NCBI GenBank assembly: GCA_963828125.1
Contig: CAWHDP010000002.1
Location: 1,728,001-1,792,000, forward strand
Source of the DNA: an uncultured Chlamydiae bacterium
GTDB lineage: Bacteria > Chlamydiota > Chlamydiia > Chlamydiales > SM23-39
Direction: 5' to 3'
DNA length: 64,000 nt
How positions within the stretch are numbered: position 1 is the stretch's first letter; every line of letters begins with the position of its first letter. A model generated the notes under the pieces. The model did not search any database, was not told where the DNA came from, and was given only the letters and a program-made list of their open reading frames with translations. Made by a program: the position numbers and the translations under genes. Positions 51,780 to 56,046 of the stretch are shown here, piece after piece.

Positions 51780-51853
51780 TTATTGTTGGACGATCCCTCG
51801 TTCATTCTACTCAATCTCCGAAGATTATGCGGGGAATGAGGCTTTATAAAATG

Positions 51854-51868
51854 CCGTAGAAAATACGG
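51854..51868 (-). promoter_or_regulatory. Operator 1, CCGTA-GAAAA-TACGG
   Basis: 24 nt upstream of CATAAT (51824-51829). Confidence 0.75.
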
Positions 51869-51905
51869 TAGTCGCATAAAAACCAACAATATGATTTTTT
51901 TAAAT

Positions 51906-51953
51906 GTCCAATGTCCAGTTTAATTTATACTGCGGCCACCCGGCCGCAGTATA
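51906..51953. mobile_element. Family C arm (51906-51920) and mini family B element (51926-51953)
   Basis: gtccaatgtccagtt; tatactgcggcc-accc-ggccgcagtata. Confidence 0.8.
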
Positions 51954-51974
51954 CTTGCGATTAGATAATTTTGT

Positions 51975-52478
51975 TTACGTATAATCCACTTGATTGGGTT
52001 TGAAAAATTGGGTCCACGCCGATTGGTGGCCTTCCGCAGATTCTGCCTCACAACGGAGCCATTCAAATACGCCGTTGCGCTCGAGTCCACTTTTCAACAA
52101 CTCATTCTTTGTGGTGATTTCTATCTGCTGCGCATCTACGAGTCTCTTTGCTTCGCGGAACTCATTTTTTAATGTACACAGTACACAAGACCAAGTCAAA
52201 GGGGTCTCTAGACGAGCTTTAAACATCTTTTTTATCGCATCAAAGAGCCGAATGCACGCTTGAGGAGCTTCTTCGTCAGTCCTGTCAGCAGAAAATGAAA
52301 AGGAGACGTCGACATTTTCAGACTTGGCGCCCTGCGCGCCTAAATAGTTGGCGCCCTGCGCGACTAAATGGTATGTTGTTTGATACTTCTCACCCATTTT
52401 TTGAAATCCGAAGTCTTCCGGGCGAACTCCGCCTATGGGATCACTGCTATGGATCTTTTTCACTGACAATTCAATCAT
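51975..52478 (-). CDS. Orphan 167-aa protein
   Basis: ATG 52478 with GGAGGG SD. Confidence 0.65.
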   Translation of the reverse strand: MIELSVKKIHSSDPIGGVRPEDFGFQKMGEKYQTTYHLVAQGANYLGAQGAKSENVDVSFSFSADRTDEEAPQACIRLFDAIKKMFKARLETPLTWSCVLCTLKNEFREAKRLVDAQQIEITTKNELLKSGLERNGVFEWLRCEAESAEGHQSAWTQFFKPNQVDYT

Positions 52479-52491
52479 TTTTACCCTCCAT

Positions 52492-52533
52492 TTAGCCCGC
52501 ATTTCTCACACAGACGCGAGAAATGCGGGTTAG
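52492..52533. mobile_element. Minimal family A MITE, TTAG duplication
   Basis: ttag-cccgcatttctcacacagacgcgagaaatgcggg-ttag. Confidence 0.88.
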
Positions 52534-52612
52534 TTATACACAAATTCCCGATTCTTCAGGTTGTTTCTGTATAGATTGCAAAGATTGTATAGGGTATGGG
52601 ATTTGAAAAAGT

Positions 52613-52627
52613 CCGTAAAAAATACGG
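52613..52627 (-). promoter_or_regulatory. Operator 2, CCGTA-AAAAA-TACGG
   Basis: 23 nt upstream of TACAAT (52584-52589). Confidence 0.75.
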
Positions 52628-52694
52628 TAGCTGTCGGGCGACAGCGTAAACTGACCCCTGACCGACCTCACCCAATCCAACTTCACAAAGGATC

Positions 52695-52841
52695 TATACT
52701 GCGGCCACAGTGGCCGGTCGAACAGATGACAAAGCTTGTGAAGATGTCCATTTTGCTCATATGACTGGGCATTGGCCATTTCTCAGCGCTGCGCGCCTTG
52801 GATATTTGCCCCGCAGCGCTGAGAAATGGCCAATGCCTAGT
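52695..52841. mobile_element. Family B remnant (52695-52716) and long family C palindrome (52764-52841)
   Basis: tatactgcggccac; 30-bp arms actgggcattggccatttctcagcgctgcg around an 18-nt loop. Confidence 0.8.
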
Positions 52842-54445: not shown

Positions 54446-54518
54446 ACACTCTCCTTATTTATAAATGGCTGAAAATGAAAAGAAGAGGATGGTGCGCCAC
54501 GTAGGGATTCTTTTCAAT

Positions 54519-54620
54519 CCGTAGAAAGTACTGCGGCCACCCCAAATTGGTCATTTAAATGTTTTTTATGTTGAAAAACAGTTTTGACAACGGAAAAGAA
54601 TAACACCGTAGTTTCTACAG
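54519..54620. promoter_or_regulatory. Divergent operators 3 (54519-54533) and 4 (54606-54620)
   Basis: CCGTA-GAAAG-TACTG 24 nt from CACCAT (minus strand); CCGTA-GTTTC-TACAG 24 nt from TAAGAT (plus strand). Confidence 0.65.
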
Positions 54621-54771
54621 GAGATATTAAACCGCTCGTCTTATTAAGATCGTTCTCTTTAACTGGACATGCAACCGGTTGGGACACTCTCATACAGGCT
54701 GTCTGTGTATCGGGCGCTTCTCAATGCTTTGACGCTGCCCAAATTCACACTTTTGGGGTGGCCGCAGTATA
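54529..54771. mobile_element. Family B ends in inverted orientation (54529-54546 and 54728-54771)
   Basis: tactgcggccaccccaaa ... ttttggggtggccgcagtata. Confidence 0.75.
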
Positions 54772-54794
54772 AACAACAGAAGGAGAAATAATTT

Positions 54795-55688
54795 ATGTCT
54801 ATTGTAATGACAGGGCAGAACCGAAATAGTCCTCTCACTCTGCGCCTCATGCCTCCGGAGGTACAACGAGAAGCTCTCTTGTTCTGCAGCCCTAAAGATC
54901 TTGCCTTGTATGCTCGTGTAGACAAGGCTGCAGCGGCATTTCGCCACGAAAACGCTGCCAGTTTCCTTGAGTTCCATTTAAAAAATGCAAAATCTCTCGA
55001 CTGGGACAAGATTGAGAACAATATCGCTGCACTTACGCATTTAACAGATACACAAATACAAAATCTAGGAGTTGAGGATTTTACCCGCTTTCTAAATGAA
55101 CTGAGGGGGCTCGTAAACTTGCATGAGGGCAATGTAAAGAAGGCGAGACTTTTTAGACTGTTTTTTTCATTCTGCACCGAGGTCACTCAACTAGATCTGG
55201 GAAAATACCCTAGCCGCACTCTGATCTCCTCTATTTTAGACGCGCCAAATATCCGCTCCCGCATCAAAGTATTGAATCTGCCTGGTGCAGAGGAAAAAAA
55301 TGGGCCTCCCCCACCCGTGCCAGGATTTTCATATGACGGGCCCAGGGGCCTCTATCAAAAAATCTATGAAATGCCATCCTCTCCTGGCTGGCGCAGGCTG
55401 GTTGGAAAAACGACAGATTTATCCATTTCATTTCCTGCACAATGCGAAGACCCTGTCCAACTAGGTGAGACTTGCAATCAGGCAGCGGCAACGATTCAAA
55501 GAGTGTGTGAGGGATGGCATTGGTGGGTTGGTTTGGGGGGCAGCGCCGATCTTTACATGAAGGTCAATAGGCAAATAACCCAACTCCATCAGCTCGGCGC
55601 CTCTCTAAACACAAGTGATGGACAGCTGCAGCATGAACTATCGTTAGCAAAAAATTTTGAGGGTTTTGGATGGCTATCCCCCTCATAA
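54795..55688 (+). CDS. F-box-like domain protein
   Basis: LRLMPPEVQREALLFCSPKDLALYARVDK near the N-terminus; AAGGAG SD. Confidence 0.65.
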   Translation: MSIVMTGQNRNSPLTLRLMPPEVQREALLFCSPKDLALYARVDKAAAAFRHENAASFLEFHLKNAKSLDWDKIENNIAALTHLTDTQIQNLGVEDFTRFLNELRGLVNLHEGNVKKARLFRLFFSFCTEVTQLDLGKYPSRTLISSILDAPNIRSRIKVLNLPGAEEKNGPPPPVPGFSYDGPRGLYQKIYEMPSSPGWRRLVGKTTDLSISFPAQCEDPVQLGETCNQAAATIQRVCEGWHWWVGLGGSADLYMKVNRQITQLHQLGASLNTSDGQLQHELSLAKNFEGFGWLSPS

Positions 55689-55700
55689 AAAACCAGATTC

Positions 55701-55731
55701 GCTGTCCCTTTCGCTTACGCGAAGGGACAGC
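55701..55731. terminator. Hairpin between convergent genes
   Basis: gctgtccctt(t)cgc-ttac-gcgaagggacagc. Confidence 0.65.
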
Positions 55732-55748
55732 CAATGCACTTCACTTTT

Positions 55749-55973
55749 TCAGAGGATGGTGCAGGGACAGGAAGTTGAATCTTTTGTTCTCTTGCTCGTC
55801 GCATACGAAAAATCTCCACCCCATCCTCCTTTCATATGCTCTCCAAAAGCAGGAGCTGGGGAAGGCGGCGCAGATGACTCTGGTTCAACCAACGCAACGT
55901 CGCTGCTTGGAGATGGTTCGGACTTAGGATACTGAACATGAGGATATGAATTTACTGGTAATATTGATGACAT
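55749..55973 (-). CDS. 74-aa Ser/Pro-rich protein ending in a CaaX box (CPCTIL)
   Basis: ATG 55973, AAGGAG SD at 55981-55986, own operator and promoter. Confidence 0.65.
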   Translation of the reverse strand: MSSILPVNSYPHVQYPKSEPSPSSDVALVEPESSAPPSPAPAFGEHMKGGWGGDFSYATSKRTKDSTSCPCTIL

Positions 55974-56031
55974 AGGCTTTCTCCTTTTAAAAGCTGCACA
56001 TAGCATGAACAACACGCCGAATTAAAAAAAC

Positions 56032-56046
56032 CCGTAAAAAATACGG
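56032..56046 (-). promoter_or_regulatory. Operator 5, CCGTA-AAAAA-TACGG
   Basis: 24 nt upstream of CATGCT (56002-56007). Confidence 0.75.

Follow-up and report, generated by a model that had tools for sequence, protein, structure and literature searches.

A probable LuxR-type activator and its local operators in an uncultured chlamydial genome, and a putative one-residue code for operator choice among its relatives

Gene regulation in the environmental chlamydiae is nearly uncharted, and the closest described counterparts of the locus analysed here come from Legionella. According to the parts of PMC13555631 that we could draw on, LexR1 (lpg2524) and RegK3, the latter known only through that paper, are auxiliary LuxR-type one-component activators of patchy distribution that adjoin their targets, act from an inverted repeat that precedes the −10 element at a constant distance and control effector or effector-like genes; RegK3 controls its own island only. 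We analysed a 64,000-nt stretch of DNA (the window) from an uncultured Chlamydiae bacterium of lineage SM23-39 (assembly GCA_963828125.1, contig CAWHDP010000002.1, positions 1,728,001 to 1,792,000). Here, five copies of the 15-base palindrome CCGTA-N5-TACGG face five transcription units between kdsB and the gene for a PhoR-type kinase, with a luxR-type gene at the end of the run. By analogy, this island may work like the Legionella regulator–effector islands (RegK3/LciRS type), with a different operator. Judging from the sequence, we estimate at about 80% the probability that this is a genuine local regulon with an identifiable regulator, in which CCGTA-N5-TACGG is the operator of a single LuxR-type protein that would activate the local island as a ligand-bound dimer.

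The likeness to the Legionella regulators has clear limits. The chlamydial protein belongs to a different phylum, and RegK3 senses through a PAS domain. LexR1 uses an element of the TGTCG-N6-CGACA type (16 bp, read by eye from the mutagenesis primers in PMC13555631); judged by its operator, the chlamydial protein is not a LexR1 orthologue. The accessible parts of the same paper report no close LexR1 homologues outside Legionella and describe no helix-to-operator code for LexR1 or RegK3. LuxR is likewise absent from the main text of two phylum-wide papers (PMC4652624 and PMC4989314), the supplements of which may list such proteins. Among open-access papers, the scope of our search, we found no description of this motif, of the code set out below or of a chlamydial LuxR regulon.

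A sequence-only reading of this DNA had pointed to five sites, and their positions, spacers and promoter hexamers were all borne out when we re-read the letters (coordinates are those of the window). Three sites are perfect and lie on the minus strand. The operator at 51854..51868 (spacer TTTTC) is followed after 24 nt by the −10 hexamer CATAAT (51829-51824) and points toward a DnaJ-domain open reading frame (ORF) and then a gene for an ankyrin and SET-like (Ank/SET) protein; that at 52613..52627 (TTTTT) is followed after 23 nt by TACAAT (52589-52584) and points toward an orphan ORF at 51975..52478; and that at 56032..56046 (TTTTT) is followed after 24 nt by CATGCT (56007-56002) and points toward a 74-codon Ser/Pro-rich ORF. 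The other two carry one mismatch each: CAGTA..TACGG at 54519..54533 (minus strand, spacer CTTTC, CACCAT at 54494-54489 after 24 nt), the weakest of the five, and CCGTA..TACAG at 54606..54620 (plus strand, spacer GTTTC, TAAGAT at 54645-54650 after 24 nt), which points toward an orphan gene at 54795. At 54519 the left half-site, CAGTA, is formed by the end of a repeat found genome-wide; TA comes next in 120 of 125 copies of this repeat, but CT in the copy here. The T-rich spacer that had been proposed as a shared feature is present in all five sites but is a tendency alone in the wider family described below (25 T-rich, 11 A-rich and 7 even among 43 operators).

When the window was scanned at up to one mismatch, only these five sites were found (0.53 ± 0.72 expected; five reached in 0 of 100 shuffles), in agreement with the initial impression that the motif occurs nowhere else in it; the window holds no GAGTA or GGGTA palindrome. 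The whole genome (2.37 Mb in 2 contigs, 95% complete) contains 3 perfect and 30 one-mismatch sites, and all three perfect ones fall within this 4.2 kb. A YANNNT hexamer stands 23–25 nt from 4 of the 30 one-mismatch sites, two of these being 54519 and 54606. The number of perfect sites is at background, as a reversed control pattern gives 2 and the same half-sites with spacers of 0–10 give 0–3; the signal is therefore one of position, not frequency. The earlier expectation that an operator should stand out from the genome in frequency and position thus holds for position and fails for frequency. We trained a weight matrix, supplemented by a −10 term, on 25 CCGTA sites taken from other genomes; when this genome was scanned with it, the four highest-scoring distinct sites were 51854, 56032, 52613 and 54606 (29.9, 24.5, 22.8 and 19.1), ahead of the next unrelated site at 15.2; 54519 is absent from the top 30 rows. 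Such a scan had been suggested as a way to find genome-wide enrichment upstream of orphan genes, and none was found, so the regulon is local. Scores fall after the four island sites and there is no second cluster, which rules out a genome-wide regulon. The high-scoring sites all lie within 8.2 kb of luxR, with none elsewhere in the genome, and control is probably confined to the island itself.

The spacing between operator and −10 element recurs across the family. Reading 43 family operators from other genomes in both directions, we found YANNNT hexamers at offsets 23, 24 and 25 in 15, 17 and 15 of 86 readings, against 0–10 at each of the remaining offsets between 5 and 49. The −35 match of the same operators is that of shuffled sequence (2.53 versus 2.49 of 6, n = 43). 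If the −10 element is taken to start at −12, the site would be centred at −43 to −45 (spanning about −51 to −37). The lux box is centred near −42.5. Spacing and absent −35 together make class II activation likely, from a site standing in for the −35 element; this geometry had been proposed from the five promoters and gains support from the family. Four of the five show a site abutting the −35 position at a fixed distance from the −10 element and, as noted at the outset, lack a good −35, with just 1–3 of 6 matches to TTGACA. The exception is 54519, which has a −35 element, TTGAAA, at 54517-54512, 17 nt from its −10. The DNA between operator and −10 element is 6–11/23 identical among the five promoters, compared with a mean of 7.7 in unrelated pairs, so common ancestry of the five promoter blocks is unsupported. 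That 23–24 nt have been kept despite this divergence points to selection on each site.

The likely activator is a LuxR-type one-component regulator of 278 aa encoded at 47894..48730 on the minus strand (PF00196, E=4e-12, 45.9 bits against a cut-off of 23.5). It is the sole GerE match over the cut-off in the genome and lies 3–8 kb from the sites; no paralogue was found in the genome by tblastn or phmmer, and no homologue in viral contigs. Seven sub-threshold GerE matches, the only other candidates for LuxR-like genes, are copies of one multicopy transposase-like ORF. The frame is intact, and its AlphaFold2 model has a predicted local distance difference test score (pLDDT) of 92.5. The predicted fold of the sensor domain (residues 16–165) matches the ligand-binding domain of LasR (Z 13.1, r.m.s.d. 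3.0, 144 residues aligned), and the protein carries the LuxR-family helix–turn–helix (HTH) invariants E178, L182 and G188 as E213, L217 and G223. Its recognition-helix codons, R239-T-V-E-S243-Y244, lie at 47999..48016 (minus strand). Ser243 is encoded by AGC, where the clade has Asn; among 81 homologues, position 243 reads 67 N, 5 S, 3 H, 2 T and 1 G, with 3 unread. Because luxR lies on the same strand downstream of the 51854 promoter, a putative read-through feedback is possible.

In its two-domain layout and modelled sensor fold, the protein appears to resemble the acyl-homoserine lactone (AHL) receptors and LuxR solos LasR, TraR, SdiA and QscR. Its operator differs from the 20-bp lux box in sequence and in its 15-bp core (about 19–21 bp with TA flanks), and resembles it in being centred near −44. 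The available parts of PMC4338825 give six invariant AHL-pocket residues, W57, Y61, D70, P71, W85 and G113. Of the first four of these, placed by a chained alignment through RhlR, the W and P are kept as W59 and P73, Y61 is replaced by C63 and D70 by F72; these pocket residues led us to reject an AHL receptor. The protein has no Autoind_bind match in Pfam. The luxI family PF00765 has no match in the genome, but control genomes also gave none in the same search.

To relate regulator and operator, we compared loci of relatives (labelled with L-numbers here). Forty relatives (about 75 Mb) were searched separately for the LuxR protein and for the palindrome: 13 of 41 perfect sites lie within ~3 kb of a LuxR match, often just behind its stop codon, where roughly 0.2 would be expected (hand count). 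The genome probably belongs to an environmental chlamydia: it carries an FHIPEP/SctV-type secretion gene, and fifteen LuxR-homologous records are labelled Chlamydiota (11), Verrucomicrobiae (1) or just 'bacterium' (3). The closest homologues have no CCGTA site, a point that at first spoke against this LuxR. When homologues were sorted by the residue following RT(V/I)E and the palindromes near them were enumerated de novo, an operator family emerged with an invariant GTA-N5-TAC core, in which the outer two bases of the half-site follow residue 243. This would explain why the closest homologues lack a CCGTA site.

The pattern is seen in 85 homologue rows chosen by protein match alone, after removal of this genome and of 12 rows that had been picked for their motif; some loci contribute more than one row. 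For each row we recorded the closest perfect palindrome no more than 5 kb away. S/F/A/Y/C/G rows (29) have CCGTA in 14 cases, GAGTA in 1 and none in 14; H rows (28) have GGGTA in 13, CGGTA in 2 and none in 13; N rows (24) have GAGTA in 12 and none in 12; and the four K/T rows have no perfect palindrome within this distance. The N rule was derived on 8 loci, and later sets gave perfect GAGTA in 4/8 and 4/9 distinct loci and perfect CCGTA in none. Column 243 is the best operator predictor in the alignment (50/53 rows by leave-one-out; next column 42/53). This LuxR groups inside the N/GAGTA clade, with a Shimodaira–Hasegawa-like approximate likelihood ratio test (SH-aLRT) support of 99 in a quick tree and local support of 98 in FastTree (rows under 200 aa and L143 excluded), yet it has Ser243 and CCGTA sites. 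Other S/G members of the wider clade also obey the CCGTA rule, namely L098, L097 (sites at −47, bearing one mismatch, and more than 5 kb off) and L156 (Gly). The TACAG half-site variant of 54606 recurs beside the S-type LuxR genes of L097 and L098. On the FastTree tree, the helix class changed 7 times and the operator 9 times. A subfamily with a SnoaL-like sensor has the same helix and the same CCGTA operator, so that the operator goes with the HTH rather than with the sensor.

A solved structure offers an independent comparison. The best profile match of the chlamydial HTH to solved structures is VqmA of vibriophage VP882 (E=8e-15; PDB 7DWM; PMC8284805), an activator that is also closest in structure (Z 11.1, r.m.s.d. 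1.5, 67 residues aligned, 37% identity). By the portions of PMC8284805 accessible to us, phage VqmA binds TAGGGGGAAAAATACCCT, which contains 8/10 specified bases of GGGTA-N5-TACCC, and its helix reads RTIEH; helix and GG-N9-CC site thus fit the H-type operator of this family. VqmA differs in having a PAS sensor for 3,5-dimethylpyrazin-2-ol (DPO), whereas the chlamydial LuxR has a LasR-type fold, Ser at the coding position and a CCGTA site.

Several points weigh against this reading and its code. The accessible text of PMC8284805 reports tests of other helix residues, E194 and C-terminal ones, and maps VqmA specificity to residues other than the equivalent of position 243. The 53 operator-bearing rows behind the leave-one-out score are drawn from 98 (45 have no operator) and include the 12 motif-picked rows and this genome. 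The residue classes were defined after the first loci had been seen, and the later sets tested N (and one G) only. Independent contrasts on well-supported branches number 5, of which on average 4.6 agree with the rule and 0 contradict it (sign test p=0.0625); a sign test on 5 contrasts cannot attain 0.05, and kin are not independent. No perfect site lies within 5 kb in 43/85 homologue rows, some of which are on short contigs and many on contigs of 20 kb, and 2 of the 53 rows break the rule: L044, where GGGTA is nearer than its CCGTA, and L125, where GAGTA is 4 kb away. Relatives mostly carry the site no more than 300 nt from the gene, compared with 3–8 kb here. This LuxR alone among 81 has a one-residue insertion just N-terminal to the recognition helix, and it differs from its clade at 7/67 conserved columns; both suggest that it may be impaired. 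Family targets elsewhere are mostly small-molecule enzymes or ORFs without a family, none eukaryote-like, and the island genes are called 'effector' because some encode Ank, SET or DnaJ domains, others are orphans, and the genome has a marker of type III secretion. That the island targets are secreted or effector-like can be suggested on this basis.

Some of these features would also be expected if the sites were genuine operators of this LuxR in an island that is decaying and no longer switched on. The start of the DnaJ ORF is uncertain, with a 9-codon frame ahead of it, just a 74-codon ORF follows 56032, a repeat end has overwritten 54519, an insertion-sequence end lies beside 52613, the helix-adjacent insertion is unique, and a collapsed copy of the Ank/SET region is present at 56122-56260. 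Against this, three sites are perfect, the spacing is held in all five despite diverged intervening DNA, and the well-modelled, intact LuxR keeps 60/67 conserved columns; we consider decay unlikely. Even less probable, in our view, is that another factor binds the sites, or that this LuxR represses or silences horizontally acquired genes. Repression would suit 54519, where a good −35 lies one base from the site and binding could block polymerase; certain sites of the family overlap the start of luxR or point toward it, and some LuxR solos are repressors by the available text of PMC4338825. The sites nevertheless end 23–25 nt before the −10 element, outside the core promoter on its upstream side, and across the family −35 boxes match no better than in shuffled sequence. 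As for another factor, the operator type tracks the helix residue of this LuxR family, and the operator is unlike the consensus sites of HrcA, PhoB and Euo that the available text of PMC4989314 lists for Waddlia.

The palindrome might instead be a relic or target of mobile DNA, such as a repeat end or a cassette recombination site, with its −10 spacing incidental. Genome-wide palindromic repeats do occur in every one of these intergenic regions, one of them forms half of 54519, and the island appears shuffled. The repeats are nonetheless spread over the genome, whereas the perfect palindrome is found here only; in relatives it is mostly single and adjoins luxR, its outer bases co-vary with the regulator residue, and the −10 peak is family-wide. 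This makes mobile DNA the least credible of the explanations weighed here.

Under the preferred reading, activation of the island by the LuxR-type protein, a small ligand would bind the regulator, which would then dimerize on the CCGTA-N5-TACGG half-sites. By what is known of the LuxR family, the bound protein, centred near −44, would bring the housekeeping RNA polymerase to promoters that have just a −10 element, and it would activate rather than repress, turning on a neighbouring set of orphan genes that are in part eukaryote-like. The history may have been one in which the lineage lost a cyclodipeptide-synthase-like partner, Asn243 changed to Ser (one base is enough) and the protein gained control of CCGTA promoters. 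Of the seven conserved columns at which this LuxR differs from its clade, five are in the sensor domain, so that its ligand may have changed too. A more specific version, which we consider doubtful, is that of an orphaned receptor after rewiring: with the synthase lost and the operator switched by the Asn-to-Ser change, five host-directed genes would be turned on upon a peptide-derived signal from co-resident chlamydiae or the host.

The partner in question is a conserved divergent gene found at 19/25 distinct loci of the Asn clade; 3 of the 6 loci lacking it have less than 800 nt upstream. It resembles the XYP cyclodipeptide synthases (E=6e-9; Atlas 0.95), with altered catalytic positions: compared with PDB 5OCD, 5MLQ and 5MLP, the Ser and YP motifs are kept and the positions of Y178/E182 read D..Q (by visual mapping of the numbering), so that it may make something other than a cyclodipeptide. 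In 20 LuxR–partner pairs, the intergenic GAGTA site has 0, 1 and 2 mismatches in 9, 5 and 6 cases. The Asn-type pair is a candidate for a LuxI/LuxR-like circuit built on a novel type of synthase; the available parts of PMC4159871 note LuxR genes in cyclodipeptide synthase clusters generally. Divergent pairs of this kind, with D..EQ for Y..EE and GAGTA between the genes, have 78 representatives at E<1e-30 (pair loci L031, L074, L076, L077, L079, L080, L106, L129, L133-L135, L142-L144, L147, L148 and L152-L155). In this genome, a profile that matches 28 loci found no partner gene (best E=0.09), and none was found beside the other three Ser/Gly members, the targets of which include an ankyrin protein and two GNAT proteins.

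If this reading is true, the phylum gains a family of ligand-sensing local activators with an operator that can be read from one residue; targets would be predictable in any genome from sequence, and effector-like orphans could be found through their promoters. The regulator-island logic of Legionella would likely have arisen in a second group of intracellular bacteria. The family would provide a natural, compact case in which the specificity of a transcription factor was switched repeatedly at one position, and its code would be a testable handle on the control of locally acquired genes in intracellular bacteria. What we find surprising is the apparent one-residue operator code and the switch within it in this genome, both read from sequence comparison.

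The genes of the island are diverse. On the minus strand, the DnaJ-domain ORF (50472..51779, 435 aa, DnaJ E=6e-12) is followed by the Ank/SET gene (48868..50475, 535 aa; Ank E=2e-12, SET E=5e-4, below cut-off), which is likely the second gene of the 51854 transcript because its start overlaps the DnaJ stop. The first ATG past the 51854 promoter (about 51808) opens 9 codons only, leaving the DnaJ start assignment uncertain. The orphan at 51975..52478 (minus strand) comprises 167 aa from an ATG at 52478 preceded by a ribosome-binding site (RBS) and has no Pfam family and no paralogue in the genome. Facing 54519, a 526-aa protein (52865..54445, minus strand) contains a 2H-phosphoesterase domain with an HPHSH motif (PF22547, E=5e-6, at cut-off), and an Atlas search gave no usable match. 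We take the HPHSH motif to be HIT-like; joining the two, this orphan is possibly an enzyme that degrades nucleotide signals. The 297-aa orphan at 54795..55688 (plus strand) had been called an F-box gene, a label that did not hold: it has no Pfam match, the F-box model scores 12.5 bits against a cut-off of 20.5 (E=0.46), and its N-terminus is faintly F-box-like at most. Among 5.8 billion proteins, a search within 163–520 aa found no homologue of it but itself, and its single-sequence model is of low confidence and uninformative (pLDDT 44). The Ser/Pro-rich ORF (55749..55973, minus strand, 74 codons) has an ATG with an RBS at 55973 and lies in an 88-codon frame without Pfam family. The type III secretion marker in the genome is a FHIPEP/SctV-type gene. 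In luxR- and phoR-centred loci of relatives, homologues of the island proteins amounted to two weak ankyrin matches and no others. Defining the island borders by an empty site failed, as the 1.5 kb around phoR contain no kdsB in 13 relatives. At 40038-43892, two further large orphan ORFs (601 and 648 aa) occupy a low-GC block (36–41%) without operator sites.

Elsewhere in the family, 33 ORFs lie downstream of operators, 21 with a Pfam family (6 GNAT, 3 HAD, 2 methyltransferases, 2 SnoaL and 8 single cases) and 12 without. Modules of luxR, operator and GNAT acetyltransferase occur at L048, L050, L069, L070, L093 and L128, and most sensors of this subfamily keep W, Y, D and P of the AHL pocket. 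One further genome has Ser-type members with several CCGTA sites per locus, at L136 (2177, 9922, 19567) and L140 (478, 664, 6629, 16896); these sites precede an ankyrin protein and GNAT-domain proteins, a predicted second multi-gene regulon. The SnoaL-like subfamily (L041-L044, L046, L108 and L116; 228–241 aa) has the same HTH and a CCGTA operator, often between divergent genes; its N-terminus is presumably SnoaL-like, a label suggested by its neighbours. In one genome, His-type LuxR paralogues stand in tandem in groups of two or three (L122, L123 and L124). Four plasmid homologues from outside Chlamydiota (two from Legionella, one each from Ca. Megaira and Comamonas) have no perfect coded palindrome, so the code is not established outside this group. 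On the plasmid of Ca. Megaira (Rickettsiales; L159:4740), a hybrid CCGTA-N5-TACTC lies upstream, between a family-like regulator (helix RTVERH) and a large divergent gene.

The DNA around the sites is rich in repeats. Three families of short palindromic intergenic repeats occur genome-wide (167, 75 and 73 arm matches), the commonest unit being 48 nt with TA ends; in the window they are found at 51905-51953, 52493-52532, 52695-52841, 54529-54547, 54738-54772 and 56050-56123. Where such ends are paired, no transposase bounded by them was found. A degenerate end of the genome's multicopy insertion sequence, which we take to be IS21-like together with its transposase-like ORF, lies at 52633-52660, a few bases from the 52613 operator. 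The collapsed copy at 56122-56260 combines three pieces from upstream of luxR and from Ank/SET (48798-48829, 49298-49333 and 50437-50485), and the PhoR-type kinase, ~35 codons longer than its homologues, ends inside it.

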